64,000 nt of DNA, from positions 32,001 to 96,000 of the IMG/VR virus record IMGVR_UViG_3300005077_000489, one strand, 5' to 3'. Each line of letters starts with the position of its first letter. Position 1 is the first letter of the stretch. This document shows, one piece after another, positions 31,793 through 63,900 of the stretch. The stretch is from a virus (Duplodnaviria > Caudoviricetes). The notes beneath the pieces are model-generated. The model was not told the origin of the DNA, did not search any database, and worked only from the letters and a program-made list of their open reading frames with translations. A program made the translations under genes and the position numbers.

Positions 31793-32175
31793 AGATATTA
31801 ATTGTTGAAAATGATGTTATTGTGGGTAAGATATGGAGAAAGTGGCTATCTAGGTTACATGAAGTTAGAAGTGCTGAATCAGCAGCTACCGCTCTAGAGG
31901 CTATAGATGAGGAATTACCTGACTTGGTTATTTTAGATTTACGTCTTAATGGACCAAACCCCGCGTCATCTGGTCTTAGAGTATTTAATTATTTACGAGA
32001 GAAGGCAAATAACATTCCCGTCATATTTATTACAGGGTTAGAATATAATGTAGAATTATATCAAGAAGCGAAAAAGATTAGTGAGAATGATTCTGGTGCT
32101 GGAATAAACACGGAACTTGTTCGGAAGCCTATTTCTATACATAAGTTAACGGAATTAGTTGATAAGGTAGCGTAG
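31789..32175 (+). CDS. Single-domain response regulator (CheY-like receiver)
   Basis: MKILIVEND, LVILDLRL (phospho-Asp), FITG, VRKP. Confidence 0.9.
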   Translation: MKILIVENDVIVGKIWRKWLSRLHEVRSAESAATALEAIDEELPDLVILDLRLNGPNPASSGLRVFNYLREKANNIPVIFITGLEYNVELYQEAKKISENDSGAGINTELVRKPISIHKLTELVDKVA

Positions 32176-35036
32176 TGGACCCACTAACATATATAAATGT
32201 GTTAATTATAGACGACGAAGAAGAAATAGTATCTTTATTTTCTAAGATGCTGTCAAGGTCTACTTTTCCCTTTTTTTCTGTTACTACTTGTTACGATTTG
32301 GAGTATCTTAACTGTAATATTAACAGTAGTGTTGACGTGGTCTTGCTAGATTTGAATCTAAAATCTTCGCGGGGACTAGAAACTTTAAAACGTTTTTTAT
32401 TAATGTGCCCAAAAACCCCAGTTGTCGTTATTACAGGAAGTACAGAAGTAGGTTTAGCCTACGAGTGTTTTCAATTAGGTGTTAGTGACTTCATAATAAA
32501 ACCTAACGTAAGCGATATTCTTTTACAAAAGGTTTGTGTATATTCTATTATTCGTCATAAGGCTTTAGCAGAACTAGAACAAACGCAAGCTAAATTATCT
32601 GGATTCATGGATGCAGCTCCGATAGGGTTAGGTACGGCAGCATACAGAAGAATTATATCTGTAAATTCTTTTCTGTGTAAAATGTTGGGGTATAGCGAGG
32701 AAGAGTTGGTAGGACAAGATGCCAGAATCATATATTCTGATGAGGAGGAATATCAAAGAGTAGGGAATCTAAAGTATAATAATTTTAGAGAGCAGAAAAA
32801 AGTAGCAATAGAGTGCAAGTGGAAAAAGAAAACAGGAGAAATAATAGACATCTATTTGTGTTCAAATTTCATCAATAGTGAGGATTCCTCCGCTAACGTT
32901 ATTTTTACTGCGATGGATATTACAGAGCTTAACGAAGCAAAGAAACAGATAGAGAAGGCGAGGGATAAAGCACAGAATTATTTGAATATTGCTGGAACTA
33001 TGATATTAGCTCTCAATAACAAAGCTGAGGTAGTGCTAATTAATAAAAAGGGATGTGAGATAGTCGGACTACCACAAGAAGAGGTTTTAGGAAAGAATTG
33101 GATAAATAATTTTGTGCCTTTGGAGTCTCGTGAAGAAACCTGGTTAATTTTTAATACCTTAATGTTTTCTAAAGAGGTAATAGAAGACCATGCCCATATA
33201 AACTGGATAGAGTGCAAAGGCGGCGGTAGAAGACTTATAAAGTGGCAAAATACAATAGGTAAGACTAATGGATACATCCTCAGCTCTGGGGAGGACATAA
33301 CTGATGCTCATTATATGCAAGAAGAACTACGTAAGAGCGAAGCAAAATATAGAAGTGTGGTGGAAACTGCGGGCGAAGGAATAATTATAACACAGAATGA
33401 GGTTGTTAAATTAATAAATAAAAGTATTACAGACTTATTTGGATATACTGAAGAGGATATGGTTGGTCATAGTATGTATGAATTCTTACACCCAGATTCT
33501 GTTGATGAAGTCAAGTCTAATCATTTAAAGAGAATGGCGGGGGAGATATTAGATAGTAAGAATTATGTCATAAAGGGTTTTGATAAAAGTAGAAATATTA
33601 AATATGTGGATTACCGAGTAACAACTGTAGATTGGGGAGGTAGCCCTGCCTCCTTGGGTTTTGTTAGTGATATAACCGAGAAGTTGACATTGGAACAGAG
33701 GCAGCATCTTATTATTGATATACTGCGTGTATTAAATGAGCCTTATTCAGGCAAACAAACTGTTAAAACTATTTTGGAGAAAATACGGGAATTTACCGGA
33801 GCCGATGCTGTGGCTATACGTTTAAAAGATGGTCATGATTATCCTTATTTTGTCTACAAAGGGTTTTCTAAAGAATTTATAGATGCAGAAAACTATTTGT
33901 GTAAGTATGGAGCAGACTCGGGGTGCCTAGTTACAGAACCTAGTGGTAAGCCTGTATTAGAGTGTATGTGTGGTTGTGTAATAAGGGGGTATGTGGATAA
34001 GTCCTTGCCTTTTTTTACTGAAAATGGTAGTTTCTGGATCAATGGTTCTACTTCATTACGTCAGATAACACCAAAGGAGCTGATGGGTAACACTAGGAAT
34101 ACGTGCAATACGGAGGGCTACGAATCTATAGCTATAATTCCCTTAAAAGCCGGTGAAGAGATTATTGGTACATTACAGATTAATGATAAGAGGGAATATT
34201 ACTTTAGTAAAGAATTAATAGAGTTTATGGAGCGGCTAGCTGCTAGTATTGGTGTGGCTGTAAAGAGAGTATGGACTGAAGAAGCTTTAACAAGAATAGA
34301 AATTGCTAAGACACAAGATTTACTAGAGGCGTCACGCTTTTTGAATGCAGGAATAGCACATGAACTTAGGACTCCTTTGCAAGCTATATTAAATTCTTTT
34401 GAATACATAAAAACCGTGTCTTCGGAGGAATGTGCCGATCAAGAAAGCCAGTGTAATTGCAAAGCAGAAGTTTCTGAAATAGCTTCAGAGGGTATAGATA
34501 GAACTGATTATGCTATACAAGTGCTTGACTCATTAGCAGAATATTCAAAAATTGCCTCTAGTAGTGAAAAACATTTAATTAACCTTTTTATAGAATTGAA
34601 GACAATATTGACAACTTTAAGGTATACTGACCAGTTTAAGTCATTTACTGACGATACACTTAAATTAGAAGGTAAGCCTATCGGTTGTTCGATTAGAATG
34701 AATCGTGTTGATTTTCAGCAATTAATTGTCAATTTGTGTAAGAACGCCAGAGAGGCAATACAACACGATGACCCTGTCATTGGTATCACATTATACACAG
34801 ATAATAATGATGCCATAATAAGAGTTAGGGATAATGGTAGAGGAATATCACATAAGATAGGTAATAAGATATTTGAGCCATTCTTTTCTACCAAGGATAA
34901 TCCCGAATCACAAAGTCAGGGGCTCGGTCTGGCTATCGTAAAGAATATAGTTACCGCTTATGGAGGAACTGTAGATTATAATAGTCGCCCGGGCGACACG
35001 GAGTTTATAGTTAGATTTCCGTGTGATAAAGAATAG
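32175..35036 (+). CDS. Hybrid sensor histidine kinase (REC-PAS-PAS-PAS-GAF-HisKA-HATPase)
   Basis: REC LIIDDEEE..LLDLNL..IIKP; PAS segments; H box IAHELRTPL; N box NLCKNAREA; G1 DNGRGI; F box IFEPFFSTK; G2 GLGLAIV. Confidence 0.92.
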   Translation: MDPLTYINVLIIDDEEEIVSLFSKMLSRSTFPFFSVTTCYDLEYLNCNINSSVDVVLLDLNLKSSRGLETLKRFLLMCPKTPVVVITGSTEVGLAYECFQLGVSDFIIKPNVSDILLQKVCVYSIIRHKALAELEQTQAKLSGFMDAAPIGLGTAAYRRIISVNSFLCKMLGYSEEELVGQDARIIYSDEEEYQRVGNLKYNNFREQKKVAIECKWKKKTGEIIDIYLCSNFINSEDSSANVIFTAMDITELNEAKKQIEKARDKAQNYLNIAGTMILALNNKAEVVLINKKGCEIVGLPQEEVLGKNWINNFVPLESREETWLIFNTLMFSKEVIEDHAHINWIECKGGGRRLIKWQNTIGKTNGYILSSGEDITDAHYMQEELRKSEAKYRSVVETAGEGIIITQNEVVKLINKSITDLFGYTEEDMVGHSMYEFLHPDSVDEVKSNHLKRMAGEILDSKNYVIKGFDKSRNIKYVDYRVTTVDWGGSPASLGFVSDITEKLTLEQRQHLIIDILRVLNEPYSGKQTVKTILEKIREFTGADAVAIRLKDGHDYPYFVYKGFSKEFIDAENYLCKYGADSGCLVTEPSGKPVLECMCGCVIRGYVDKSLPFFTENGSFWINGSTSLRQITPKELMGNTRNTCNTEGYESIAIIPLKAGEEIIGTLQINDKREYYFSKELIEFMERLAASIGVAVKRVWTEEALTRIEIAKTQDLLEASRFLNAGIAHELRTPLQAILNSFEYIKTVSSEECADQESQCNCKAEVSEIASEGIDRTDYAIQVLDSLAEYSKIASSSEKHLINLFIELKTILTTLRYTDQFKSFTDDTLKLEGKPIGCSIRMNRVDFQQLIVNLCKNAREAIQHDDPVIGITLYTDNNDAIIRVRDNGRGISHKIGNKIFEPFFSTKDNPESQSQGLGLAIVKNIVTAYGGTVDYNSRPGDTEFIVRFPCDKE

Positions 35037-42902: not shown

Positions 42903-45900
42903 GTGGCAGAAGAATACACCTTTAATATAAAGTTAAAAATAGATGTGGATGATTCTAAGGTATATAAACTAAAAGAATTGTCTGACAAGACTAATGATGT
43001 ACTACGTAACATAAATATGTCCCATGTGAAGGGACTTGGCTCTAGTATGTCTTTTGGGACCAGTGATAAAGACATTCAAGTTTTTAATCGTATCAAACAG
43101 GAAGTACAGAACCTAGAGGGTTATATAGATAGATTAAAGTCTGATCGAATGTTTACTCCCGCCTATATTGATGATGCCACTAAAAAGTTTTCCAAAGATT
43201 ATGATAGAAAGCAACTCAAAGAAGATTTAAAAAAAGAAATGCAGATGGAGCGGGATAGGTTATACCACTCCATTACCCATGCTACAGACAGTATGAAACG
43301 TAGTTTAGAGCAGCAGAGAAAAGAATTTATCGACTTACATAATACCTTAAAGCAAATTAAAAAACCTACCGATATATCTACATTTTCTGGTGAGCGTGTA
43401 ACTCTCAGACCAGAAAGAAGTCTGAAGGAAATGACAGCCCCTGATATTTTTACTCGTGATCTGGAATTAATGATAAATAAATTACTCTTAAAACCGAAGG
43501 CAGAATTAGGGAAAGAAATATTAAAAGTAAAAGAATACATGGATGACGTCTATTCAGAGATTAATACTGCCTTAGATAAGGTGGGTTATGAGTCACATCG
43601 TAGGGCTCAAGAAGAGGTTGGTAGGCTCCGCTTGAAAATAGAGGGACTTGCTACCGCAGGGGATATAGACCAGATAACACGTAATGTAGAATCTTCATTA
43701 AAAAGCGGGGATTTATTAAACCAAGTTAAAAAAATGCGTGAAGAGATAGTGAAAGCATCCACCGAGTTTGCTAAGGAACTGGGTGATGAGACGGATAAAA
43801 CTAGAAAGTCCTTTGCTAATTTTCAACGTAGTATTATTTTTGCCTTTAACAAACCGCAGTTCTTTGACCCCGCTGGAGAACTGTTCAGGGATGTGCAGTC
43901 ACTCAGCCAACGTAAAGGAATTGGTTCCCCTTACGGCGGTCGTTACGTTGGTGCTCCTAGGATTAAGTTTGATGAGGGCGGAATAGCCAAATATGAACTA
44001 TTTGATGTAAAGGCATTGGCAAGAGAAACTGCTAAATTAATGTCAGTAGCCGGGTTAAAGCAAGCCTTGAAGGCTGACCTAGATAGTTCCCTGCAAGATG
44101 CCTTGAACAAATATTTGGATGCTAATAAAATTTCTAAGAAAATAGAAACACTAGTTTCTTATTCTATTAAAGACCTGCAAAAGATACAACTAGATTTGCT
44201 CCGCTTTGCCGAAAAAGAAGTGGCTAGGCGAATTGGTGATGAAGAAACCAAGAGGCGTATAGAAGTATTTAATAAATATTTAGAGAGTATAACAAAACAG
44301 GCACTAGTCCTCCCTTCTATCGCTAAAAGTTCGCGTGGTGCTTCTATTATAAGAGACCCCGAACGTGGAGAATATCTGACTCTCGGTAGATATCTAGAAA
44401 CTAAACCAGGTATTAATGAATTGGATGATAGATTTATCAGACCTTTGTTAGACTATGTTAAACGTATGAATTATCGTACACAAGATATTCCGTCGCAAGT
44501 GAAAAATATTCAACGTACTGTTAAGGATTTCTGGGTAAGATCCCGCCCACAAGAAGAGCATGGTGTTGGGGTTGGTATGGAGTTAGCCGCCAGAGAAATG
44601 GTCGGTAGGATGAAGACAGCTTTTGATACGGTTGGCTCCTTCCTGGAACAGACTAGAGGACCTAAGGCTAGAAGAGCATTAACCGGAATAGATGAACTTA
44701 AGCAGCAATTCATGGTCGATTATGAGAAAGCACTGCGAGAGGCTGTGCGTGCTACTCACGAACGTGTTGCTAAAGAAGAAATAGTTACCGGGGCTAAAAG
44801 ATTACCCCCTGATTTGGAATCTCGTTTTAGGGAAGCCTTGAATTCTTTACAAGGAAAGGGTCCTAGATACCAATTATTACCAGAGCAAGTTGTTGGTTTT
44901 CTAAGGAAGGAATCTGAGAAAGTAGCACGTCAGATAGAATCTTTACCCATTGATAAATTAGAAGATGAATTAAATCGTATTGGACAGAGAGAGAAGAATG
45001 TAGTAGGTGGTACCGATTATGATGCTAGAGCATGGCAACGTGTCCTAGAGGAATTCAGTAGATACCGAAACGTAGATTTTTACAATATGTTAAATCGTGC
45101 TGCTTCTTATTCGAAAGATAGTATAAATGAATTGGAGAAGATACGTAATAGTTTATCTTCAGCCGGTCGCTTAGGAAATGAATCTTATTTTCAAGAATTA
45201 TTGCAACAACAATTTAAGAAGGTTTTTGACCCTATAAAAGAGAAGGTACCTGAAGAGCACGAAGCCATGCAGAAGCATGAGGTCTACGGTCGCCATAAGG
45301 TAATAACAATCCAGCCAAAAATACCTGGAATAGATGCCGGGCCTAGTTCCTACGGTGTTCCTGTCGATTTACAAGCTCTCAGAAGATTTATTGTTCAGAG
45401 AAATCTTGACATGGAAGAACTCTTTGAGAAGGAATATCTGAGGGGTACTGAAGCAGCCATGCGTAAATTAGGTACAACTATTGAGCGTCTTGCTACGGTT
45501 GGATTAAACGAAGCGGCAGCCGCAGGTAAACGAGATTTTGGTGATAAATTCATGGAATCTTTTTTCAGGGGTAAGAGATTACAACCTTTTGCTTCTTATG
45601 ACCCTAGGGAGACCGAGGCTTTTGGTTATTCTATAAACCCAGCTCGCCCCACCGGGGCAGCATGGGACTCCTTGGCTGGTCCAGAGTTTAATGCTATACG
45701 TTCTCGCAAAGCTCATAAATTTATCCGTAGCGGAGAGTGGGGACCGTACGGGACTGGTTTAAATGTTACTACAGTTCTTAAAGATGTTTCTGCTGGTTAT
45801 GAAGATTTATATGAGATAGGTAAAAGGTTACAGGAATTAGCTACGTTTAAATTTAAAAAACTTGTGGTTCCTAACTTGAAAGGCACAGAGGAAGAATTAA

Positions 45901-48900
45901 AAAATAGCGTTGTAAAGTATCTGCAAGAGGTTGGTCATGATATTTTTGGTGCTCCAATTAAATCTAAAGAACTAGCTGATGAAACTTATATAAAGGATAT
46001 AGTTAAGAGATGGGCACAGTCTCCTCAGGGTCCTATAGAAGAAAATATTGTTGAATTAATAAATACCTATTTGGGTCATGAAGCACGTAAGATTTCTACC
46101 GGTCAAGTTCTTAAGGGTGTAGCCTCTACAGCCTTTACTAGATTCGGTACAGAAGTAGAGGAATCGGTCAGGGAAAAAGCTAAAAAAGGATTGTATCCAA
46201 AGATAAAATTTATGGATGTGGGTGAATTATCAGATGTTCCTAAATCATTTGAAGAATTGATATCTGAGTTATTGTTGGTTCGAAAAGATTTAGACCCAGC
46301 AAAAGTTTCTAAGGCTCTAGAGATGATAAAAGGAACTCAAAATATGATTATGATGTCTTCTGACCATTTAAAACAATTAAAAATTAGTCCTATAGAATAT
46401 GGTACTGGTAGAATAATGGGGGAGGATGCTCCGAGCCTAGAGGAGCGTCGTAATTTTGTTGGTAACTTACTTGGTATAAATTTGACCTCAAAAGAAGCTC
46501 TAAGGAGTGCAGGAGATATTACTGCTCAAGTTAAAATGTTAGAGCAAGATATGGAGAGAATAAGAAGGCTATATAAAGAATCTACTGGTGGAGATTTAAA
46601 TAAAGAGGTTCCAGTAGACCTACGGATACTAGCCTCCGGGATAGGGAAGAAGTCACGTATGATCGGGGGTAACTTAGCAGAGATTATCGCAAATAATATT
46701 ATAGGAAACCTACGTTCCAGACCTTTAGAAGGTGAGACGTTAATGGAACAGATACAAAGGTCTCCCCTTGCTAAGGTTCTTGTGGAGAACACCGCCTCTG
46801 GTCGCGAAGTTATGAAATTGGCAGAACTATATAAGGGGGCTTTAGGATTACGTGGGAAGTATGGCGAAGAGTTTATATATAAACAAAATGATGCATTAGA
46901 AAAAGCGGTTGCAGGAATGATGCATGTTATGATTATGAAAGAACCTAAAGGGTGGGTACCTAAAGGTGCGGCCGAATTAGAAGCTGGTTTGTCAAAGATG
47001 ACAATAGATCCGCATGGATGGTTTGGTCTTAAGAAATTGTTTGATCCACAAGGTGCGTTGACACGTGAATTTACCATGCGGGCTTTTCCTGAAGCACGGG
47101 AAGCTGGTGCTTTCTTATCGGCATTTCGTTCATTTGCTAAATTACGTGAAGAAGAGATGACCAGAGCAGTGAAGACGGGAAAAGTTAGAATGGTCGGTGA
47201 AAAGCAATTAGTTGATGAAGACAGAGAAGATTATATTGCTCCTCTTAAAAGAAAGGCGACGGTAGCCGATCTGTCTAGAACTATTTTTGATCCATTTAAA
47301 TACGGACCTTCTATGGCTTTGGAGTTACCGGAGCCATCCGAGGATATGAAACGTTTGATAGAGGAAGAGATTAAAGAAGGAATAAAAAAAGGTATACAAG
47401 TAATGCCGGTCAAACGTTTGGTTGAAATTCCAGAGATTAGTGCACGACAGTATGTGACTTCAGAGACCGGTGAAGTATTACCCTCTACGGTATCCAGGTA
47501 TCTCTCAGAACTGGTGGATGCCACAAGAAAGTATCATATATTAGGTAGCCGAACTAATGATATAAATAAATTAGATATGCAGCGAGAGTTCGTTGGGACC
47601 GCTATTGGAGACTTCTATAATAGGATACATCCTATCAGGGACTTGAGCGTAAAACTTGATTTGCTCAGTAAACTGGAAGAGCAGGTTTTTTCCTTAGTGG
47701 GAAGTAAACCTATGCCACAGTTTTCCGGGAAATCTTCTGTCATCGCTGACGCACAGGACCCGACTAAAGTATGGTTTCCTACTATGTACAGCCGCCTCGA
47801 CGACGAAACAAAGAAATCTTTAGAAGAGGATATGCGTAAAGGTATTTCTATAAAAGATGCTTATAATAAATATTTTAAGGAGTTGGAACAATCAGTTTCT
47901 AATATAAATTTCAGGGCTCGTTTTCTTCGCGACCTTATAACGGGACCTGTAATTTATACTAAAGGAAAAGAGGATATTGGGCGTGAAGTAAAAACAGATA
48001 TATCAGAGGGTAATGATCCCCGCTATCAAAATATTAACCTAGTCCAAGATAAGATGTTATCAGATATTATCACTAACTTCAAACAGTACGAAGCTGAAAC
48101 AGATGCCTACGGGAAAACTATCGGAATAAAGTCTCGTTCTTTATTGGACTTACAGTATAATGAAATAAGACGTAATCTAAAAGAATATTATGATGAATTA
48201 TCTAATATGATATTCGGTAGAGGTATCCTGTCTGATGTAGTTTTGAAGAAGAAGATACCTGCTCTCTACCTGACAGCTCAACAACGACCTTATGACCCTA
48301 GCGAAGCAATAAAATCTGCTATAGACAAGTTAAACAAATTCAAAACAGAGGTTCCCAATGCTGAAGAATTGAAGACGGACTTAGATAAGGCTCTTCGAGA
48401 TGTAGAAACTTTCAAAGTAACAAAACCATCCCAGTGGGTCCGTCCCGGAGAAGTTCGTATAGGCGAGAGAGACCTAAAGGAATTACAAAAAGCGGGAATG
48501 GCTACTCCTGAGTTACAAAAGAGTGTGGATAGTGTTTATGCCTTGATAAATAGGCAGCCTACTACAGATGAATTTAGTTACAAGGCGATGCGGCTTACAG
48601 TGGATGATGCTCTAAAAGACCTGTCTGGAATAGCAGTAGTTCCCGGGTTACCAATAGGCGACTATCCAGTTAGTTCTAAGATGGAAGAGGCTTACAAAGC
48701 GTTAGAGGATTTACGTAGCAAAAAAGTTAAGGCTATAGAAGAAGAACTTTCTAAGTCTAAAGGTAAAATGACTTCTACTGTCACTAAGTTGCAGAGGGAT
48801 ATAGATGAGATAGACCGAGCGTCCAAGGACTTGCGGCCTATGTACCATGAAGCCTCTTTGGGTTTAGATTATGACGGAGATATGATTTCTATTCATGCTG

Positions 48901-51900
48901 CTACTGTAAAAGAAGCAAATGAGGAATTGAAGAGAATTCATGATATGCAGATGAAAGAGTATGGAACCACTAGAAGATTTTTGCATGAACAACTTAGTTA
49001 TGTTCCAGAATCAAAACGTTCTATGGGTGCCAAAGGTACTGAATTATCCGATGAAGAAATTATGGCTGTAGAAAAAATGCGAAGAAGTGCCTCTCCTACA
49101 TGGCAAGAGATGGACATTGTGAGTGACATTTCTAAGCAAGCTAAGAAGAATTTGTTAGATATCCATGCTACTACTCTTCCCGAGATAGCAGAAGATTCAT
49201 TAAAGCACTTTGTACACAAGGTTGATATGGGACAAGGTTATGAGGCTTTTAACCGTATAGGTTTCTTGTATCGTGGTGCCACGGCTAAGGATTTGGGTAT
49301 TACCCCTAAATTACATGAAACTTATAATTTATTATTAGGAGAGTTTTTGCGTGATACAATCCAAAAAGTCATAGGTGGAAAACACGGTTCGGCTGGTTCG
49401 GATATGAGTCCTATAGTGCAACAAGCTTTTTTCACTGGAAATATAGACGCGGTAGTAGATGCCCTGGACAAAGGGGATGGCGGTTGGGGAAGTTTTAAAG
49501 GTCAATCTGGTAGTAATCAACCACTATTTCAAGAGATAGAAGATAATTTAAGAGAATATCGTTTAAGATATCTGAAGCCAATGTCTAGAGATCAAGTAAA
49601 GAAGGAAGCCGAGTCCTATGGTATTTCCACATTTATGAAAGGTAGGGAACAACTAATAGAAGAGATAGTAGGTAAAACCTCTTTCAGAGCGATGTTTGAG
49701 AATGTATTTGACCAAGTAAGACGTATGGCAGTGGCTAATATAAAAGAATTATATCGTACAGGATTGGCAGGAGATTCTTCCTTATCTAAAAAGGGCTCCA
49801 TGGGCCTCGCCAAATTATTGGCTGGTACTGAGGGGTTCGAAGGAGAGACACTACAGACCTTAGGATTAAGAACTAAATTTAAATTTAATGAAGGAGACTT
49901 TGAGGCATTTGTAGACAAACAAGATGTTACTGATAAGATAATGGGAGTGTTGAAGGATAAATTAGGTAATGTCTCCAAACAGGAGATGGCTTTTCAAATA
50001 GCCGCAGCTGGAGAAGGGATTGCCAAGGTTCTACGTGGAGAACCCGGGAAACTAAAGACAGAGATAATAGAGCCAGGGTTTAGTACCGCTGGATTATATC
50101 GCGGTTTACAACCCATGTATAAACTGAAATCTTCCGGCGGGGCGGAGATGGCTGTTAGTTCTTATTCTAAACGCTCCGAAGGAGAAAATCAGTATACCCC
50201 CGGTGGTCCTGCCCTTTCTTATGCAGAAGTATTAGATTATGTATTGCGTAATAAGGCAGGAAAAAATATAGAAGTAGGTCCTTCTTTAGGTACCTTCACT
50301 AACCCGAGAGAGCAAAAAGCCTATGAATTTGTAAGTCCTGCTATTCAAGCCTACGAGGATTTTGAAAAAGCATATAATAAGATTATGTTGGTAATGGACA
50401 AGAACCTGTATGCCTTGGAGGGATTGCTCGCACAAGTACAGACTTTTGGTAAGGAAACCGCGGGTTTTAAAGGTGAATCTGCCAGAGCTGGTCGTTACGT
50501 AATGTATGATAAGGATACGCAACAAGTCTTCCTGGATTCTGCTGTAAAGTCTGCTTTTGAGGATAATAAGCGTGCTCTTTCTTTGGCTAGAAATGCTGGT
50601 GAGGCTAAAGAGGCGGAAGATAAACTTTTTGATACTGTTAGAAGAGTAAATGAATTATTAAAAAGGGGTGCAGCTTTAAAGTTTATAGATATTGATGAAA
50701 GCAGGAGAGCAGACAACCTCAGAAGTACCATAGATAAACTAGCTGACCCTTCTTCTAGATGGTCATTAAAAGTAGATAGTCTACTAGAGAGAATGGTCTA
50801 TGATAAGAAAGAATTCGGGACATTAATACGTAAGTGGTTAGCAGATGTCGGTCGGGGTGATTTATTAGATAGGAGTAATGTGGAGATAACAGCCGAGTTA
50901 AGGAAGCACAAGGGTATAAGGAAGGAAGCTCTAGAAGAAGCAGCATCTTATATAATTTCTGGTAAGGGTAATATAGCAATTGGTTTGAGACCCTTGATTA
51001 GAGATGCACGTTCCGTGGATATAAAGGAAGAGATATCCAAGGGTCTTATAGGGAAGATAAGATCGGAGGACTTCTCAAAATCTTTCTCACCCTTATTTAT
51101 GGAAAGTTGGAAAGAAGCTGTCATGCGTAATGCACAAACATTAAGTGCTTCGGACTGGAGAAGTATTTATAAGGCTCATCCAGTGTTACGAGATATGCAG
51201 GCTCCTGGTACTTCGTCATATGAAGACGTTATTAAACAGTTACGTTCCGAGGGTATTTATGGTGGTAGTCGTGGGGTCACCCATTTTATAAATAATATAT
51301 TGAAAGAAAGACAAGGACAAATTTTAGAGCACCTTGGCGTGGAGAAACCTGAAGATTGGGAAACCCTTAGACTAAGCCAAGTGGAAAATAAAATGAAATC
51401 CGGTATATTAGAGGCGGCGGAATCTACAAGGTGGCCATTCAGACCCCGTGCCGGTGGAGGGGTATATTTAGAGGATATATTGGACAAACCGGTTCACAAA
51501 GTTAGAGAAGATGTGGAAAACATATTTGATAGTGCTTTTGACCTATCCCCGGAAGACTGGAAACAAATATTTAACTTTGATGAAAAGGCACAAAAAATAG
51601 CGATGAATGCTGAAGAGCCCCTGAAGGCTTTATATGAAGCCGGTATGTACGGTGAAAATCGTGGATACACAAGATACATTAATATGATATTTAAGAAACG
51701 TATGGAGCATATTCTAAATGAATTAGGGCAGGAAGCCCCTGATTTCTATACCATGCGTTTCCAAAAATCTAAACAAGAGTTTCTTAGTTCTCTCGAAGAA
51801 GCAGCATTGGATAATTTATTAAAAGGAACTCCGTCAACCGGAGGACCTTTTGGTGGTAAGCGGTTTACTCCCGGAGAGGCTTTTGGGGAGCGGGCACCAG

Positions 51901-54900
51901 AGAACATAAGGAGAGCATCTAGAGGTTTCGTTCCTGCTGATTACCCTCATATTAAACCTATTTATGATTTTCCTAAATTCTTAGATACAGAATCTTCGGT
52001 ACAATACAAAAGTCATGGTGACCAAGTAAAAATGAGTGCTGTACCTCTAAGGTGGGGTAATATAGAAATAGGTTATGGTACTAAAAACAAACCATTAGAT
52101 CCAGCTACAGCTAATGCTAGATATAGGCCTTTTATAGAAGCTACCCAGGACCTAGTCCCAGTAATGAAAGATTGGGTAAAAGAGAACAAGCATCGCATAG
52201 ATTTATATGGTGAGTTTGGCGGGTTAAAAGATAAATTAGTATGGTTTGATGCTAAGGTAGCAAACAAAACTTTGAGTCCTGATGATTTTAAAAAGTTAGC
52301 TGAAGAGTTAAATCTGAAAACTACTGAAGAATTATATAGAGGACCAGTAACGAAAGAGATAGTTGACAAAGTATATCGTCAAGTCACTCCCTTCAGAAAA
52401 TTAGAAGAAGGCGTTGTGGCTAAAGGATTGGAGATTGATGAAAGAACAGGCTTCCCTAGAATGGCTAAGTTTAAGACTAAGCCTTATCTAGTGGGGGAAG
52501 AGACGCGTTATCCTTGGCAAGACTGGGGTAGTGCAGAAAGGAAAATAGAGGAGAGGCATAAGAAACTTATGGAGAGAGCATTTTCTCCATTTGATAACAT
52601 TGAAGAAGGGATAGAACAGGACCCTACAAGATCTTTTACACCCACGGAAGCCCAGCGTAGAGAAGGCTTATATCCAGAAAATTGGCCGGTTGTAGAAACT
52701 ACCAAAAAACGTGTTGAAGAGTATCTTAAAGGTTTAGATGATAAATTTTATCAGTCTGCCGAGAGAGCGAAAGAATTTCCTAAAGGTACTAAGTTCTTAG
52801 TACAAGCCCCGGGTGTAGAGCCCATTCCTTCCTATGCTAAGGATGCTGTGGTTATTTCTAAAGAAGAATTAAGGAAAACCATCTTTGGTAAAGGGATGCC
52901 AGACTTACCTTATGACCCTGTTCTTGTATTAAATTCTAGAAGACAGGTTCCTAGGTACCCTGAAGCAATTCCTATTTCTAAGGAACGCGGTTTTATGTTT
53001 CCTGGCGAGGCTAAAGAGGGTGATGTAGGTAGGTTTGTCATACACCAGCATGATGCCTTAAGGGCGGGTCCCCACCATGACATGCGTATTGAGTTAGGTG
53101 GTCAATTACAGTCTTGGGCAGTTCCAGAATTTATTCCGGAAAAGATGGGTGAACGTAGGTTAGCCATAGGTCCTACGGCACACCATGCCATTGACTACTA
53201 TCAGAAGGGAGATTACGATATTCCCAAAGGTTTTTATGGTGCCGGTCATATGTCAACATTTGATACGGGTAAAGCTACTGTAGAAAGTGTAAAAGAAGGT
53301 TATGTTACTGTACGATTAGAGGGAGTAAAAGGACTAGCTGATGGTACTTATTCTATCATAAAATATGAACCTAAAGGAGAAGATACAAGAAAAGGACAGT
53401 GGTTAGTGTCTAAGGTTAGACCATTGTCAGAAAGAGACCCAGAAAGAGCAAAGAAATTATACGGTTTTAGTCCATCCATAGAGTTAGATGACGAATTGGG
53501 GGCAGGAGAGGGTAGGTATGGACAGGGTAATATAAGGTTATTTACCCCTGGTAATAGAGCAGAGATGCGGGCTTTTATGAATGTATTACAACATGAAAAA
53601 GGACACGCAGCAATAGATTTTGCAGCACCTAATATTGCTAGGGATATAATGGCTGGAAAACAATTTCCTGGTGTTGATACCAAGAAACTGCAAAGTTATT
53701 ATATGCAGAAGTATGGGGACCGCGGAGATGATGAGGAGGCAGCAGCGAATGCATTAGAAGAGGCTATTGCAGGCGGGCTACGTACAGACGAAGACCAAGA
53801 AATATTAGACGAAATTAGCAAACTGCAAGATGTCATAGGTGAAAAAGCCGGAATGGCATTTGCAGGTACATCACCACAGAACGAACTTTCCTATATTAGA
53901 AAACTATTCTCACCAGTACAACAACCGTACACAGTTTATACAGATGCAGGCTCTAGAGGTAACCCCGGTCCTGGGGGTGCTGGTGCCGTAGTATTTGACC
54001 CACAAGGTAAGAAGGTTTCAGAACTTAGTAGATACTTAGGAGAAACCACAAGTATGGCTGCAGAATATCAAGGGCTTATTATGGGATTAGAAGAAGCCCT
54101 TAAACATTCTGCCAAAAACATTCAACTTAAGTCTGATTCACAAGTAATGGTGGGGCAGATGAGAGAGGAGTTTAGAGTTAAGAATGAACAAATAAAAGAA
54201 TTAAAAAGACAAGCAGACTTACTTAAAGCACAATTCGAAGGTTTTAATATAGACTATATTCCCAGAGAACAAAATAAATTAGCAGATAAATTGGCTAACA
54301 GGGCTATGGACTCATATCTTAAGTCATATTCGCCTGCCGAAGATGACGTAGACCGTTTTGGTAGTCCTATTATTTATGATTATAATAAATTGACAAGTAG
54401 CCCTAATTGGCTTCCCCGCGGTATGACTGCTAAGGCTGTTTCCGCTGCTGTAAATGGACAATTTATAGGTGCGGCATCTTATTCAACTGCCTCTCCTGAA
54501 TACACAGGGTTTGGGGAATTATCTATAAAACCGGAATATAGGCGTAGTAGTAGAGTTGCTGGTAATTTGATGGAGAAGGTAATAATAGATTTAATCAATA
54601 GTGGTAACTTCAAACATACACGTCCTCTCACCCCAGTCGCTGATACTCCAGAAGCCATCTCTTTTTGGGAGAGTATAATAAAAAGAACACAGAAGCCTTC
54701 AAGAAATATAAAAGAGGCATTCTTAGCAAATAATGTGACTCCTGATGATCTTTCCATGGTTGCTGGTAGATTACAGGCTGAAATAGACATAACCAAGGCA
54801 TCTAAGTTTACTGATGTAATAAAGAGGATCATTGAAGAACCTCATAATTTAGGGGAAGAACTTTCTAAACTGACAGAGACTAATCAAGCAAAAGTAATTA

Positions 54901-57900
54901 GAGCTACCCAGGCAGTGTTGGCTAAAACAAATGATGCCTCTTATCCAAAGATAGGTATTAAACCTACTGCTTTTTCTGAGGGATTGGATTTTAAGTCTAA
55001 ACTCCGCTCTGAAATAACATCATTATATAATTACGGTAAAGAAGGTGCCAAACTATTTTTTGGGTCTTCTGGTTCTGGTTCTTCCATAACTGAATTTACA
55101 AAGAATATAGCAAGGGGTATATGGGATGACCTAGGTAGATTGGGAAAATTCTCATTAGGTACAATGCGCGGTTTGAGGGCGTATGCACCTGTAGAAGATT
55201 TAGTTCGTAGTGGTGAGATAAAGATTGATGACACCCCATTTAGAGCCCGGGGGCTAACGTCCGAGAGAGTCAGAAACTATTTAGGTAGAGGATATGCTGT
55301 TGGTATGGGTGGGGGCGGTAATATATATATGCCTCCTGATATTATACAATCATATCAGAATGCCACTGGCGGACTTAAACAACAGTATGGTCAATCTATA
55401 ATGAAAACTTATTTTCATGAAAAAAGGCATCTTGATATCGATGCTGCTCCAGAGAAAATAAAGGAAAAGTGGAGACAACTTGCATCTGACAAGAATACTG
55501 ATATAGGTAAATTAGTTAGTAGCTTTATAAATGAGGCTATGCTTAGCACTTCCAGGGACGTATATAAGAAACAATTTGAGGATGCTCAAAAGAAATATGG
55601 AGAAAATATAGGTTCCGATTTCTTAAATTCTTTTGCTGCTAGGTGGGAAGCCTTACAAGAGATAATTGCTGGTCATCCGGAGATGCGTTCTGCTAGTAGT
55701 AATCAACAGTTAGTACAAAAAATTCGCAGTGATTTCTATGGAGATGTAAATAAGCCTATACCTGGATTTGGTCCCAGTGCTAGTGCCTTTTCTCCTAATT
55801 TAACAGATTATAAAAATTTCAAGAACATTAAAAAGGGCTACGAAGAAGAGTCGGATACTGGACTATTACATAAGAAAAAGGTAGCTTTAAAATTTGGGAT
55901 TCCGCCATTAAAAGGTCTGTTGGGAGAAGATATCGATATTTCGGAATCTCTACAATATTTAATGCATCCGGCTATGAGGGAAAGAAGACTTATGGGACTC
56001 CCCCAAAGAATGATAGATTCAAGAAATCCTTACTTAGCTGGGATGTTACGTAAAGGTTTTGGTGCTGGTGCTGGCTTATCCCTAGAAGGAGAACTAGGAG
56101 TAGGTCCTTACAAAGTAGAATTAGGTGGTGTAGGCTTTGGCAGATATGGTAAGAAAGATGAGGAATTTTTTGCTGATAAACCCAGTGAGATAATAGGACT
56201 TTCTAGTTTGGAACCCGTCAAACGTCCAATTGATTACGTGGGTTTGAGCCCCGGTGCCGAACACGGTTTGTTGGCCGCCCTTAGGGCAAATACTAACGCT
56301 CTACTACGTTCATCTTTTATTACGAAGGATATGCCCGTTGGGTTACTTCCTACTATTATGCAGGACATAACTAAAGCGTACAGGGTTCCTGCTACTGATG
56401 AGACCCTAGGCAGTGCTTTTAGAAAATTTTTTGGCGGCACTTACGACCTTGCAAAGGGTACTATGAAAGGTGCTATAGGTCTTCCTTATACATTAATAAA
56501 ATCTCCTTTGGATATATTTAAATCCGGTAAGGATACAGATTCCAGGTTTTGGACTGGTGTTGGTCAACAATTCAATGGTATTTCTGCGGGATTATCAGAA
56601 CTTTCTACATACAAGAGTGGTGCTTTCTTGGATACAGATTTAAAAAGTGCCTATTCAACCAAATCAAAATCTATTTATGATATAAAGAATATTGTAGATA
56701 TGGAGTACGATAAATTAGTAAGAAAGTTAGAATTTGGTTTGGCAGTGATGGAACCCGCAGATTTAAAGCGTAATATATCTGATGTATTTACGGCTTATTC
56801 GGACACGATGGATAATATGTTTAAAAACCCGTCTAAAGCCTTAGCCGAGGAGGCTGCTAAACAAAAAGCAATACTGGAATCAGTATTGGGAAACCAATGG
56901 GAGACTCCCCCAGCGACACAGCGATTAATACGTGGTGGTGCAACGCTGGGTCATGGGGTGTCTTCTATTTATAATCGATTACTGAAAACTTTGGAAGAAA
57001 TAGGTTATGCTACGGGTGGTGTCGGAAAGGGAGTAGGCTATTTAGCAACACACCCTAAAGACATATTACCCGGAATTATGTCTTCTATCCGAGGACTATT
57101 ACCAGGGAAGGATATTACTGGTGTCGGGTTGTTGGGTGAAACTTCCAGACAATTAGAGCAAATCTATGGTACCGGGATGTTAAGAACTTCTGATGTAGTA
57201 AAGTTAGCCGGGTACGGTGTATCACCAGAACAAAAAGTTGGGGGGTTACTCTCGCGTGCTTCAAAATATCAACCTGTGACAGCCGCGGACCGTGCTATGA
57301 GAGAAGTTCTTGGTCTCAGGGAAACCGGTGCAATTGTGGGAGATATCACTAATACAAAAGGAATCTTGGGTGCTCTAGGGCATGTTGTGGTCAAACCCAT
57401 ATCTGCTATTGGTGAAACTATGACAGATATGGGTAAGGCGTTTGGTTCCTTTAATTTAGTAGAGATGGTAAAAGCTCCTCTAATCGGTCTCTTAAAGCTA
57501 GCCCCAGTGATCGGTCATACCGTTGCGGGTGTTCAAGAATTTAGGGAAGAAGTAGAGAAGGGTGCTTCCCCTTACACATCATTTGTTAGCGAAGTCGGAG
57601 AACAAATCATAGAGGGAATTACTATTGCATTAGGTGCCGCCGCAGGTACTAGAGTTGGTCGTCCTGCAGCCGCCGGGTTAGCTAGTATAGGTGGTAGGGG
57701 TCCTATGGCAGCCGCTAAATATTTACCAATTGCCACTGGTATAATAGGTAGTATTCTAGGAGGAATTGGTGGTGGTAGAATAGGGGAGTCTTTTGAAAAA
57801 GGTATGTTCTCTATGGTGGGACAGACCTCTCCTAAGTCTGTAGCACGTTCTATTTGGGAGCAAGAACGTGATAAGCGATCTCTAGAGGAAGAGGGTCTAG

Positions 57901-60900
57901 ATAAAATACTACCGGATTACCTGGATGAATCCAAAAAAGAAGAATTAGCCAATATGCAAAAATGGTTGGTCCGTGGTGGCGTAGTTGGCGGACTATATGG
58001 TGGTATGAAGGTTCCTCTTCAAGGTGGAACACTTTCACGTTTAGTCTCTATGGTCGCGGGTCCTACTCTAGGTTATCTCGGTGCCAAAAAATTAGGAGAT
58101 GTCACGATGGGTCGTGCTTCAGAGAAGGCTAGAGAAGACTATATGGAAAAGACTCTTGGATTTCGATCTTTTTCTCCATTATCTTCACAAGAGAAATGGG
58201 ATATTCCTAGGGAAATACGCGGGGTTACGTCTGAGAAACTCAAAGGAAAAACCTTAGATGAAATAATTTCTACTTTCAAAGAGTTACAATCTGAAACGTT
58301 TAGTGGTAGCAACTTAGATAAGCAGAAACTGTTGACATCACAGAAGGCTGTTACCCAGTTTATGTCCGAGATCTATCTTAGCAGAATTGAAGAGTTGAGA
58401 GATCAACTGAATGTCGCTGCTAAAAGTGGTAATCAGAATTTAATGGCAAAACTCCGAGCAGAGATTGATAGGTATATAGTTTTTTATATAGGGAATGTAC
58501 TCAAGTCTTCTACTGGTGCACACGCAGCCGCCGATGCTTTTAGGGTGCGGTCTATCGGTGGTTTTGTAGGTTCAGAGGACTATGAAGCACGTTCTACAGG
58601 TCGTCCCCAATCTTTCGATGAGGTTATAAGTCTCGATAAATTCTTGGAGAGGGGTCTTAGCGGTGTATCTAGGAAGGCTGTAAATCTATTAAGGAATTTA
58701 TCTGATACGGGTGCTTCTCCAAGGTCTATATATCAAGAAATAATGCCAGGAATTCTGAAGTCTTCTACGAATATCCCAAGAGACGTTACGGCTGTGCATA
58801 CATATTTGAAATCTGTAGTTCATGAACTAGGACAAACCCCAGATGTTAATATAGACCAGTACCGTTATTGGAAGTCATTGGAAGAATATTTCCGGGCCAC
58901 CGCAAAGCAATACAGAGGAAGTAGTCGGTTCGACTTTGGAGATCTACGTTCTGCTGCTCCGATAACACCAGTTGGTTTACGACCGGAGGACCAGGAGACC
59001 TTTAATGCAAAAACTGTAGATTACTATAAAAAAATGTTGCAGGCCAACCCAATGTTTAAGGAGGGTGCTACTGTACCACTAGAACTTAAAGTTACGGATG
59101 AGGCTGGTAATGCTTTAAAAAATATAAGAGTTGACTTAACAAAAACAAAACACGCGGCGGACGGCGTTTCCATGTCCATAACAGATATGAATAAAGTTAT
59201 GGCACAGAAAAACACTCTGTTTGGTGCAGTAGAACTAACTTCTAGATTTATTTTGGCGGGAGCAACTGTGGGTGGGTTAGTTAATGAACTAAGGACTATG
59301 GCTTCCACTATTGCTCAAGTAGAGTCTGGTATGATGGAACTAAGAAAGGTTATGGAACCCTCTATAACCAACTTTGACGAGATACGTAACTCTGCTCTTA
59401 ATATGGCTAAAGAAATGGGTGTTGGTATTAATGATGTCATACAATCTATGGTAGTTTTCGGGCAACAGGGTGATACACAAGCACAAGTAATAGAGAAAGC
59501 GAGAACATCTGTTATGGCTGCCGCTATAACTGATATGAAAGCTGCAGAAGTCACTGAATATCTTACATCTGCGGTAAAGCAATATGGAGAAGAGATAAAG
59601 GAAACACAACGTTTTCTGGATTCTTGGATAAAGGTTGACGTACAGCATGCCATAACGGCTACTGAATTATCCAAAGCAATGCTGCGTGTTGGTTCCGCTG
59701 CTAAAGAAGCTGGAGTCGGTTTCCATGAATTAAATGGTATTGTGACTGGTATTGGCTCTGTTACTAGACAAACCGGTAGAGAAGTTGGTACTGCTCTACG
59801 TTTTATTTTTAGGAATCTCCAAACTACTCAAGTTAAAAACTATTTGCGTAATATACTAAATATTGATACGTTGTTACCGAGCGGTTCTATAAAACCGGCT
59901 ATGAAGATATTTGATGAATTACAGGCAAAATGGCAGAATTTCTCTGATGCTCAAAGGATGCATGTTGCACAATTGGTTTCCGGTGCTAGACATTATAATG
60001 CTTTTCTAGCAATGATGAATAACTACTCAGAAGTATTAACTGCTACACAAGATTCTATACACTCTGAAGGTTATGCTCAAGCTCGTTTGAATATGCAAAT
60101 GGATACGCTAACTAAGAAACTAGCACAAGTCAGAGCGGCTTCAGAAAGATTATATGTTGACTTTGGTAAACTAGCCCTGGGTCCAATGAAACTCGTAGCG
60201 GATGCCACAACTTCTATGATTACTGCTTTTACTCTAATCCCTGATACTGTAAAACAAGCTATATTAGCATTAGGTACTTTTGCCGCTTTTTCCGGTAAAA
60301 TAGAAAGTGTTATTTCCGGTTTGCAAAATTTTGGGGTGGCTAGCGGTATGTCAGATACCTTTTCTAATTTTATGTCTTTTGCTACCTCCCCAATTTCTTC
60401 AGTAATGAAAGCGTTCTCTTCTGTTCAGGGGGTCTCTGGGTTATCAGAGGTAACAACTACATTAGGAAAGATGGCATTCATTGGTATCTCTGCTGGTAGA
60501 TCTTTTAATAGTTTGTTCAGCAGTATAGGCAAAGGCGCAGGAATTGCCCTTGGTTCTGTGTCACTACTCGCTGCTGCAGTTGGAGCTCTGAGTGATTCAC
60601 ACACAGGAATGTTTAAATTGGCTGGTGCTTTCGGGCTTATAGGAGCTTCTGCTCTTATTAGCAGCGGTATTATAGGGTCCCTAAGCGGCTCCACTACAGG
60701 TTTTATTGGTTCCTTAGCACCTCTGGCTGTAATTGCTACTGTTATCTATAAAAACTGGGATAAGTTATCAGACGTTTTTGGCGGAGTAGGAAATAGTATA
60801 GAACGTTTACAGAAACAGACTGAAGGTATAGGGAGTATCACTAGCAAGCGTTTAGAAATTAGTGAAATAACTACAATATTTGGTAAGGCGAACTTATTAG

Positions 60901-63900
60901 GGAGAGGTCTCAGGGAAGCCAGAGTATCATTATCATCTTCCCAAGGCTTAGCAGAGGAACGCGACAGAGTCTTAGGAAGTATGGGCGAAGAGAGTTCTTA
61001 TAAGTCTTTAGTGTCCAGACAGATAGAATTCAATGATTTACAGAGCAAGGCTCTTAATAAAAGTATAGAATTATTACCCCAATTAGCCGATGGTTATGAT
61101 GCCTTTGGTAATGCCATAATGAATACAAATATAAATGCCAGAATCCTCCTGGAGACTATGGATGACCAATTGCGTGTAGCACAAGACATGGAAAAAGTTG
61201 ACTTAGCTAAGTTAATGACAGAAAAATTATTTCCTGTCGATTCGGTAGGGAAAACAATAAGAGATAGTTTACGTTCTATTTTGAGTATAATTCCTAGTGC
61301 GGGAGAACAATGGGCGGAAGCATTATTCCCTTCCTCTGCCTTTGAGAAACAGCAGCGTTTACTAACAAAGATGGGTGGGCAGAGAGAAATGGCTTCTCTA
61401 TATGGTAATATACCGATGCCACCCTTTATGTCTAATTCTCTAAAACAAATGCATCGGGAATTAACAAAAGTAAATTCCGAATTAGATGTGGAACTTAAGA
61501 AAATAGGAGATAGATTACTTTCCGTAAGCAGGGAGACTTCCCCCAAACAATTCCTAGATATGTTGGCACAACCGGAGTTCGATAAATATTTAGAAGTGTC
61601 TGGTGGTAGAAATATGCATATTCAAAGGCAATTAGCTGATGAATTCTTTGGTGGAAATGTAGGAGAATTGCAACGTGCATTACTACCTACTACCAGTGAG
61701 CCAAGAGCACTATGGAGACGCCGCGAGTTTGGTATCACTGGTGGCGGTATAGCGGATGCTTTGGGATTACCTAGTTCTTATAGAGTTAAATCTCCAGTAA
61801 GAGACCCGTTTGGTAGTGCTTACAGGGAGCTATCCAGTCCTACAAGATATATGTTAGAACAGTTCAATCCACAAATAGTTTCTATTGGTCAGTGGTTAAA
61901 TGATGGATATAATGCTTTAGGGCAAACTGTTACGGAGTCTTTTATAGGGGCACTAAAAACAGCCTTCAAAGCCCTTGATGTTACTGAACGAATCTCTAGA
62001 GAAGTCGGGGTAACATTATCAATGATAGGAGAACAAGGTGGATTACGACAAACATTTGTTTTGATTGGTAAAGATATTCAAGCGATAGCACTTACTATAA
62101 AAGAGTCCTTTCTCAGAAGTATTGATGATTTGGGGGCAATGGTTTCTCGCGGTGCCAGAGCAATAGCAGGGGACGAAATAGCTAATGCATTTAATAAGTG
62201 GGTAGAAGAAGCAACCAAGAATACAAAAATTGCCATAGACTCATGGATAATATGGTCTAAATCTGCAGGACAAGCAATACAACGCTCTTCTTTTGGGAGA
62301 GAATATAGTAATATCACCGCAGGTGGTAATCTGGGAGACATATATTCCAGGGCTAGTACTAAGGGTATGTTGGGAGATGTATATGCTGGTTTTGGAAATG
62401 TACGAACTGCTATTAGTGACCAGTGGTGGACCGGGAAAACATTTCCTATACAGGGTTATAGACCACCAGAATATAATTGGTGGCGTAGTGGGTATGAAAG
62501 GCGTATAGGTATAAATAAACCTGAACAAGTTTTTAGTGTAGATGTAGCATCTCTATTTACCAAGGGTTTAGGTTCTGACTTCTTGTCTACTATTCTTACC
62601 TCAATAAGCCCGTCACTTAATTTGCTTATTCGATCTAGGTATCAAGCAACTCCGCAAGAAACATATGCTAGGGAGCAAGCGGAGATGGCACGCGGAGAAG
62701 CACCGGGTTACTACACTCCTCCTAGAGAGATGTACCTTAGAAGAGACTTGAATGCTCTTGGAGTAACCGCTGTCTTAGATGAAATAAGTGTTGCATTAAC
62801 ATCCTTCTCTACTATGTGGAGAGACTACGGCGATATAATGCGGCAAGAGTACGGTTTTATACCTGAAGGACTAAAGACATTAAAGAATATGTGGCTACTT
62901 GGTGTCAAAGAGACTGGTTATAGTGCATATGAGACAACTACACAAGAGGTTCTTCCTAATATGATGAAGATATATCCTCCACTTCATCTTACATATAATT
63001 TGATGAAGCCAATGAAAGAATTCGTAGAGTATTTGACCTTTATTCCTGCAGCTATAAAAACTGTGGCTGGTGAAGTAGTAAAAGCTGGTGGAGTATATAT
63101 GCAGGGTAGAAAAGAAGTCGGAATAGAACTAGAACCAATATTTTCTATCTTAGAGAAATATCTTGGAGGAGTTGCTGCCCCCGCTGGGTTCCTCTCTGTA
63201 GACATAATGCGACTCTTGTCCAGGATATTTGTTGATTATCCGAAGGATGAGATTACTAAAAGAATAGTGGAGAAGGAAATTGCACCAGGGGAATTTGGAC
63301 CTAGGAAATCTTTCGGTCAGCTAAGTTTCAGAGAATTATTTACATATTTAGTTACAGGAGTTCGACCCTCTGCTCCTGGTACTGTTCCTACTGTAGTAAC
63401 TCCTGGTGTACGTGCTCCTACACCTGCCGAAAGGGCGGAAGAGACGGCAAGGAGACAAGCAATAACAGATGAGAATTGGAGAAGGCGAAGAGACCGCGGT
63501 GAAAGAATAGTTGACGATTGGATGGAAAGTTGGAGAAATGCTACTGTGAGTACCAGTAGGGCACTTGCTTCTTGGTCTGATATAGTTATGGCTTTCTCCA
63601 ATGATGTAGGAATTTCTATAAAAGATGTGTCTGGTATGGCGAGAGAATACATATCGCAAGTTCAGGGTAATCAAACTAAATATACCAAACAAGTACGTTC
63701 TTTTGTAGAGCAAGCATATGACAATTTATTGAATACTTCTATTAAAGCATATCAGAACGTACAAACGGCACCTATTAGAGAAATGTATGATAAAATAGTA
63801 GGACAAATTTCTGACAGGATTTCTACCGCTACAGAAGGTATAGACACTACTGCTCTGAGAGAGGGTATAAGTAAGTATATGAATAAGGCGGTAGAAGGGG

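Follow-up and report, generated by a model that had tools for sequence, protein, structure and literature searches.

Fusion of a virion RNA polymerase (RNAP) to a phage tape measure protein was documented in 2024, in a small group of Thermus phages (Oshimavirus) and nowhere else. In phage P23-45 the fused enzyme, gp96 (PDB 8H2M/8H2N), is a protein of 5,002 amino acids (aa) with the RNAP at its extreme N-terminus and the motif DFDGD at residues 779-783; it is present in virions at full length, is active as a 1200-residue fragment, and transcribes a 9-kb pre-early region which includes a paralogous non-virion polymerase, gp64 (Chaban et al. 2024, PMC10770324). The flat, clampless shape of gp96 was proposed as a solution to its passage through the tail tube (PMC10770324). 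Here we consider a giant tape measure open reading frame (ORF) with a polymerase-like module, located in a window of 64,000 nt from an uncultured phage (bases 32001-96000 of the 211,229-bp linear IMG/VR record IMGVR_UViG_3300005077_000489, whose completeness was estimated by CheckV at 86%). Sequence comparisons point to a second, much larger lineage of such fusions, one that has no detectable sequence relation to the enzymes of the Thermus phages. Full-text literature searches returned no paper on tape-measure-fused polymerases beyond P23-45, and none describing the present family.

We consider it probable that the beta/beta-prime catalytic core of cellular-type two-barrel RNAPs gave rise to residues ~800-2290 of this tape measure protein, now a cysteine-free single chain predicted to be a virion-delivered early transcriptase. 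Along the chain there would be a beta-type barrel (with E967/D968 and K1063/K1071), a connector, a beta-prime-type clamp, a beta-prime-type barrel, predicted to supply the Mg-binding residues D1989, D1991 and D1993, and a downstream block (Table 1).

The original prediction, made from the letters of the window, had proposed an RNAP with both halves of the active site in one chain and inside the tape measure. The motifs it listed (GYED, K1063/K1071, PVD, SRM, NRQPT and DYDGD) were all found at the positions given there and in one frame, and since this same frame carries the tape measure family PF10145 (E 2e-25), they do lie inside a tape measure protein. The three metal-binding aspartates are present as well, and they are nearly invariant in an alignment of 74 sequences. 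The numbers of occurrences expected by chance in 13,616 aa were 0.011 for D[FYW]DGD, 0.020 for NR[AQ]P[ST] and 0.006 for the K-x7-K motif; in 2000 shuffled sequences the motifs never came together in this order. A chance origin of the motif set is excluded.

Relatives of the module were found in three ways. An exhaustive HMMER search with aa 900-2099 returned five fragments close to the query, at 51-69% identity, and four giant proteins at a greater distance, the latter aligning to aa ~923-1280 with E from 2e-9 to 3e-4. Word-index searches seeded with the distant members added ~65 proteins on contigs of up to 304 kb, mostly of 7,000-8,000 aa and mostly with PF10145; several of these are labelled by JGI as 'TP901 family phage tail tape measure protein'. 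Six more loci came from contigs scanned in IMG/VR and JGI, one of them in a 545-kb, 100%-complete record with an open frame of 14,712 aa. In feature searches of the ESM Atlas, neither aa 940-1300 nor aa 1840-2250 scored above 0.79. The query's own subfamily is small, with about nine members 58-69% identical to the query; members of the large subfamily, typically 7,000-8,000 aa long, are only 17-24% identical to it.

The order and spacing of [FY]ED, [RK]Kxx[ST]xxxxKG, RxPx[ST] and D[FY]DGD are kept in nearly every one of the ~70 metagenomic relatives (in relative P0021 the second motif reads RKFTTRHGSKG). While the mean column identity of the 74-sequence alignment is 28%, conservation of at least 90% was observed for E967, D968, R1062, K1063, T1066, K1071, G1072 and V1073 in the beta-like part, and for R1884, P1886, V1913-P1914-G1915, P1917, L1988, D1989, D1991, G1992, D1993 and H1998 in the beta-prime-like part.

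A BLAST map against 64 distant giant tape measure proteins showed that only aa ~800-2100 and ~5300-6200 are common to both subfamilies; alignment between the subfamilies by hhalign added aa ~2101-2290 to the first of these blocks (probability 97.8%, E 1.1e-12). Thus the polymerase module and the tape measure core are the two fixed parts of the protein, and the stretch between them is variable. The presence of both in one polypeptide holds in all relatives. The enzymes encoded in the variable stretch of the query, an RNA ligase (PF09414), a LigD 3'-phosphoesterase (PF13298) and an RNase H (PF00075/PF13456), are not conserved: the closest homologue, P0002, has a PF01743 nucleotidyltransferase in place of the ligase and phosphoesterase, and many others have a PF00929 exonuclease.

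If the module were an inactive relic, serving only as extra length or as a structural plug in the tape measure, its catalytic residues would have stayed nearly invariant in ~70 proteins otherwise diverged to 17-24% identity, while the flanking cargo was being freely exchanged. We regard this as very unlikely, even though the beta-type barrel was not modelled and recognition of a bridge helix and a trigger loop failed. The predicted transcriptase also stood just outside the reach of the 2024 survey: the motif filter used there, [RK]xPx{20,100}DxDxD, misses the protein by two residues, because its spacer is 102 residues long. The spacer limit may be one reason why the query's subfamily went unnoticed.

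Evidence for the beta-prime half came from both profiles and predicted structure. The only Pfam family that recurred in per-member scans was PF00623, Rpb1 domain 2 (17 of 30 members, best E 4e-4). In a six-frame search of the whole 211-kb genome this family matched in two places only, the NRQPT and DYDGD sites, collinearly at profile positions 98-122 and 139-163; the score was 8 bits against a cut-off of 25.3 bits, no Pfam RNAP model rose above threshold, and PF00562 gave no match. When hhalign was run with a beta-prime profile of 59 proteobacterial sequences, DYDGDMISIH..EA was aligned to beta-prime 460-479 (P 2.9e-4); NADFDGDQMAVH has the same DxDGD-x4-H spacing.

A first AlphaFold model, built from 30 sequences, had a predicted local distance difference test (pLDDT) score of 61.8, was poor in both barrels and gave no Foldseek match. 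The second model, built from 60 sequences (rows 61-74 of the 74-row alignment were left out) and ending at aa 2149, had a mean pLDDT of 71.1, with values of 80-94 at aa 1360-1840 and of ~63-85 in the barrel strands at aa 1850-1853, 1877-1884, 1893-1900, 1910-1915 and 1994-1999. RNAP largest subunits dominated the Foldseek list of PDB matches to this model. In a VIA-align comparison of the second model with 48,161 representative chains, 14 of the top 21 were RNAP chains: among the matches were human RNA polymerase (Pol) I RPA1 (Z 9.8, 266 aligned residues, root-mean-square deviation (rmsd) 4.7), Drosophila Pol II Rpb1 (Z 9.5), Sulfolobus Rpo1N (Z 9.4, 19% identity), Mycobacterium tuberculosis beta-prime (Z 8.2) and the non-virion RNAP of phage AR9 (Z 8.0, 272 aligned residues), as well as vaccinia and African swine fever virus chains. 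The archaeal RNAP clamp 3qqc_A matched the clamp-like domain with Z 8.8.

Nearly all the RNAP matches span model residues 463-1071/1079 (463-1079 being aa 1412-2028 of the protein), and the chains that span this range are aligned from their own residue ~11-25 to ~447-681, that is, beyond their DFDGD. Upon re-alignment of the top 814 Foldseek chains, Z was at least 8 in 291, and the top 50 were all largest subunits of Pol I, II or III, archaeal or bacterial RNAPs, aligned over 240-283 residues with rmsd 3.3-5.3 A and Z 9.2-9.9 and with consistent ranges in all these groups. Among AFDB clusters a single match was clearly significant, to a 'DNA-directed RNA polymerase' of 1052 aa (E 1.4e-6, probability 1.00, query residues 307-1080), with many RNAP subunits ranking below it; BFVD returned jumbo-phage RNAP subunits and, with E 8e-4 and probability 0.99, part of a 'Minor tail protein' from an uncultured siphovirus.

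These results led us to conclude that aa ~1412-2028 and the N-terminal half of beta-prime/Rpb1, clamp and catalytic barrel, are homologous. The counterpart in cellular chains runs from residues ~12-25 to ~35 residues past NADFDGD, at 14-19% identity. The catalytic barrel has both an R/K-x-P strand (R1884-Q-P1886) and a DxDxD metal-binding loop (D1989-Y-D-G-D1993), and the clamp and NADFDGD barrel of beta-prime follow one another collinearly (240-283 residues; AFDB E 1.4e-6). The differences are that the present enzyme is a single chain, that it has a helical hairpin of ~55 residues in the catalytic barrel, and that it is free of cysteine. The zinc-binding cysteine clusters of the cellular clamp were not found: aa 1-12,283 contain no cysteine, so the zinc sites are lacking. 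Nothing similar to the beta lobes, the C-terminal half of beta-prime, or the alpha, omega and sigma subunits was detected.

The original prediction had also referred to the single-chain two-barrel virion RNAPs of crAss-like phages and P23-45. The single-chain two-barrel type predicted here is shared with crAss-like phi14:2 gp66 (PDB 6VR4) and with the YonO/QDE-1 clade (2J7N), and gp66 is likewise a virion-packaged polymerase inside a very large protein, though not part of a tape measure protein. The best structural matches, however, fell in the group of cellular multisubunit RNAPs, with their beta and beta-prime (Rpb2/Rpb1) chains, and of the phage enzymes derived from them (the non-virion RNAPs of AR9 and phiKZ); the closest relatives by structure are clamp-bearing, cellular-type beta-prime subunits; the matches to gp66 and QDE-1 were far weaker than those to cellular beta-prime (6vr4_A had Foldseek E 0.72 at rank 46).

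One could still suppose a two-barrel nucleotidyl transferase that is not a DNA-dependent transcriptase: an enzyme that copies RNA, as QDE-1 does, a synthase of primers or oligonucleotides, or a DNA polymerase of the archaeal PolD kind, possibly acting in concert with the RNA ligase, phosphoesterase and RNase H nearby. Template specificity is not readable from the motifs, RNA-repair-type enzymes do occur in the same polypeptide, and QDE-1 was among the structure matches (Z 8.9), as was an AFDB cluster named 'RNA-dependent RNA polymerase' (E 0.011). However, the QDE-1 alignment is poor, with an rmsd of 8.2 A over 198 residues, in comparison with 3.3-5 A over 240-283 residues, clamp included, for the DNA-dependent beta-prime/Rpb1 chains; the match lists held no PolD chain, and the cargo enzymes are unconserved in a family where the polymerase is conserved. 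An enzyme of this other kind therefore seems unlikely to us, and the DNA-dependent transcriptase is retained as the preferred interpretation.

For the beta half, the evidence consists of motifs together with collinear but weak profile matches. The family consensus GxGxNV..x..TFEDQIxISGxLA resembles a beta motif of the GxN..FED type, and the consensus GRKLTTR[YFH]GSKGV resembles beta GDKMAGRHGNKGV; the module and cellular RNAPs have the same order of the beta motifs GxN..FED, GxK..R.G.KGV and VxVQ and an identical DFDGD-x4-H spacing. Comparison of the block aa 950-1300 with a beta profile by hhalign gave both beta motifs, in order, as the two best local matches (beta 811-824, P 0.026; beta 1063-1107, P 0.076), and upon removal of the proteobacterial insertion (beta 938-1040) one collinear alignment extended across both motifs (P 0.009). 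The beta-type barrel is thus supported by conserved and correctly ordered catalytic motifs, its fold being unconfirmed.

One element of the beta half is doubtful. The original prediction had taken PVD..SRM..G as a beta motif; SRM turned out to be a two-residue insertion limited to the query's subfamily, and hhalign puts the beta segment at aa ~1098-1116, which is confidently modelled as a strand and a helix. The earlier mapping is probably misplaced. The block with PVD and SRM is nonetheless conserved as such: in the family alignment R1241, S1243, G1246, K1249, R1252, E1260 and N1265 stand out.

Table 1. Features of the giant tape measure ORF and of two head genes upstream (positions in the window; residues of the tape measure protein)
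Feature	Position (strand)	Residues	Remarks
Conserved RNA polymerase module (predicted)	45300..49772 (+)	~800-2290	BLAST map against 64 distant giant tape measure proteins, and hhalign
Beta-like motif 1, GxGxNV..x..GYED-LYEIG	45750..45827 (+)	950-975	E967 and D968 nearly invariant; beta-like
GYED	from 45795	965-968	
Beta-like motif 2, RKISTGQVLKGV	46086..46121 (+)	1062-1073	K1063 (nt 46089), K1071 (nt 46113); resembles beta GDKMAGRHGNKGV
Strand and helix YPKIKF..VPKSFEEL	46194..46280 (+)	1098-1126	Likelier beta counterpart by hhalign; pLDDT 88-91 in second model
Conserved block VPVDLRILASGIGKKSRMIGGNLAEIIANNIIGN	46608..46709 (+)	1236-1269	Contains PVD (aa 1237) and SRM (aa 1251); beta counterpart uncertain
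Clamp-like domain	47136..48422 (+)	~1412-1840	Matches N-terminal clamp region of beta-prime/Rpb1; zero cysteines
Beta-prime-like catalytic barrel (double-psi beta-barrel A, DPBB-A)	48429..48902 (+)	~1843-2000	
NRQPT	48549-48563	from 1883	Within DPBB-A
VPGLP	48639-48653		Within DPBB-A
Helical hairpin insertion, ~55 residues	48666-48836	1922-1977	Within DPBB-A
DYDGDMISIH	48867-48896	DYDGD from 1989 (nt 48867)	Within DPBB-A
Downstream conserved block	49203..49772 (+)	~2101-2290	Candidate bridge-helix/trigger-loop-type elements
Giant tape measure ORF	42903..64000 (+)		Continues past window; ends at window-equivalent 83753; genome 74903-115753
Variable cargo enzymes, same ORF	51999..54305 (+)	RNA ligase 3033-3176; LigD 3'-phosphoesterase 3381-3485; RNase H 3675-3801	
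Tape measure core, PF10145 PhageMin_Tail	59388..59972 (+)	5496-5690	E 2e-25; TP901-type
Three hydrophobic membrane-type segments	60525..60752 (+)	5875-5950	Just C-terminal of tape measure core
Portal-like head gene	4630-6621		Upstream of tape measure ORF
Major-head-like gene	28211-29281		Upstream of tape measure ORF

Several results speak against a two-barrel transcriptase in the tape measure and should be weighed together. The module has no significant sequence match in Pfam, PHROGs or PDB (searched with the single sequence and with a profile), nor in tblastn against 50,697 deposited phages. Matches to the beta profile are weak, with control comparisons (the beta-like block against beta-prime, the beta-prime-like block against beta) scoring nearly as high, 24.4 and 21.8 versus 28.2 and 24.5. 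Both AlphaFold models leave aa 950-971 and 1062-1082 at pLDDT <50 and without strands. Foldseek with the second model gave no individually significant match in PDB (best E 0.038), and Z values of 8-10 fall in the range that VIA-align itself calls 'middling'. Neither bridge helix nor trigger loop could be identified against beta-prime by hhalign with the 59-sequence profile. A search of sequencing runs gave a single weak match (5%), to DNA of a subsurface metagenome, and no RNA run with the sequence. Finally, a folded, clamp-bearing polymerase should not fit into the tail tube.

On balance, the motif invariance, the PF00623 matches and the likeness of aa 1412-2028 to beta-prime/Rpb1 uphold the proposal of a single-chain polymerase in the tape measure, with the beta barrel not folding confidently in either model; in superposition the clamp and the DYDGD barrel match cellular RNAPs, and paired barrels were not seen.

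The block at aa 2101-2290 gave no profile match to beta-prime, and model confidence is low there. Two segments, KVDMGQGYEAFNRI and IQKVIGGKHG, have a superficial likeness to the bridge helix and trigger loop; they had no hhalign support against the same beta-prime profile, and we do not claim them as such.

Comparison with P23-45 gp96 suggests similar working and different descent. Both proteins combine an RNAP, two-barrel in gp96 and predicted to be so here, with a giant tape measure protein in one polypeptide; the lysine barrel would be ahead of the DxDGD barrel here as it is in gp96, both have hydrophobic and metallopeptidase-type segments downstream, and both are proposed to transcribe the genes that enter first. 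Nevertheless, the family profile aligned by hhalign with gp96 1-1200 appeared unrelated (P 0.28, probability 0.2%), a comparison of limited power as the template was a single sequence, and no gp96 chain was among the structure matches listed. While gp96 is flat and has no clamp, the module described here begins only at aa ~800 and includes a clamp-like domain modelled with confidence; the tape measure protein is 13,616 aa long rather than 5,002 aa and carries the RNA ligase, phosphoesterase and RNase H cargo. The enzyme thus looks like one that works as gp96 does but is not of the gp96 family, being instead a fused and pared-down derivative of the cellular-type core.

Another difference is that no counterpart of the paralogous non-virion RNAP gp64 of P23-45 was found here. 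Family-profile searches of the phage's own 211-kb record (86% complete) and of the records of three relatives gave one copy each, and a search of the genome for the DxDxD motif by regular expression found no second polymerase. The T7-type RNAP family PF00940 and sigma-70 (PF04542) gave no match in this genome or in the three relatives' records; PF00940 also matched no control genome, so its absence has little weight.

Since the module is part of the tape measure, it would be built into the tail. By analogy with gp96 it would be expelled ahead of the DNA or together with it at infection, and it would then transcribe the first-entering genes independently of the host polymerase; the RNA ligase, 3'-phosphoesterase and RNase H located downstream of the module would be co-delivered cargo. 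Activity, virion delivery and the early-gene role are what we infer from this analogy. Insensitivity to rifampicin, which the original prediction had suggested, is plausible, because nothing like the rifampicin-pocket region of beta was detected upstream of aa 950.

The question of delivery leads to one more alternative, that the module is active and yet not delivered by the virion: it could be cut off while the tail is being assembled, the HExxH domains of the same protein being one candidate for this, and act in the producing cell only. The clamp-bearing fold does seem too bulky for the tail lumen, and the module sits at residues ~800-2290 of a 13,616-aa protein; on the other hand, P23-45 virions hold the RNAP domain within full-length gp96, and an enzyme required in the producing cell would be oddly placed in a late structural gene. 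The whole tape measure protein has only 8 cysteines, every one beyond aa 12,283, which leaves the polymerase and all cargo enzymes cysteine-free. The absence of cysteine from the module fits a protein translocated unfolded, and translocation also fits the observation that polymerase and tape measure core are strictly linked across the family. We therefore consider action in the producing cell alone improbable and delivery with the virion the better account.

A broader scenario may be put forward tentatively, as something we would rate somewhat below an even chance. Separately from the Thermus phages, a cellular-type beta/beta-prime core that had retained its clamp would have become fused to a tape measure, giving this arrangement a second origin; the zinc-free and cysteine-free enzyme would travel unfolded in a micrometre-scale tail and refold in the host, would be the only polymerase of these 200-550-kb phages, and would be the constant leading part of an otherwise interchangeable series of injected enzymes (here RNA ligase, 3'-phosphoesterase and RNase H).

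The tape measure ORF has 13,616 codons in the genome and is a single open frame with no stop up to the end of the window. Its start, GTG at 42903, comes immediately after an in-frame TAG, and homologue P0002 has the same start residue. Ahead of the module, aa 1 to ~800 (window 42903-45300) are lysine/glutamate-rich, mostly unconserved outside the close subfamily and without a family match. Some 7,400 residues follow the tape measure core; a tail well in excess of one micrometre would be expected even if these residues alone serve as the ruler.

Nearly all long ORFs are on the + strand. Among the phage structural genes we observed a hybrid sensor kinase of 953 aa (window 32175-35036, +) with a receiver, several PAS, GAF, HisKA and HATPase_c domains. 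Downstream of the tape measure and outside the window there are four more giant ORFs, of 4741, 3141, 2187 and 1892 aa (genome 124195-138420, 160882-170307, 170232-176795 and 152538-158216, respectively); a Pfam search with the largest was without matches. A 408-aa protein with RRXRR and HNH endonuclease domains (genome 146596-147822; PF14239, E 3e-60) is encoded among tail-fibre-like genes with Big_1 and F5/8 type C domains.

The lineage comprises about 70 protein clusters, with contigs of up to 545 kb and tape measure proteins of 7,000-14,700 residues. The question that it sharpens is how a clamp-bearing enzyme of ~150 kDa passes the tail tube. If the proposed reading is true, these phages would offer structural and evolutionary studies a minimal form of the cellular RNAP core, single-chain and free of cysteine, and injection of a polymerase through the tail would be a widespread strategy of huge siphovirus-like phages.

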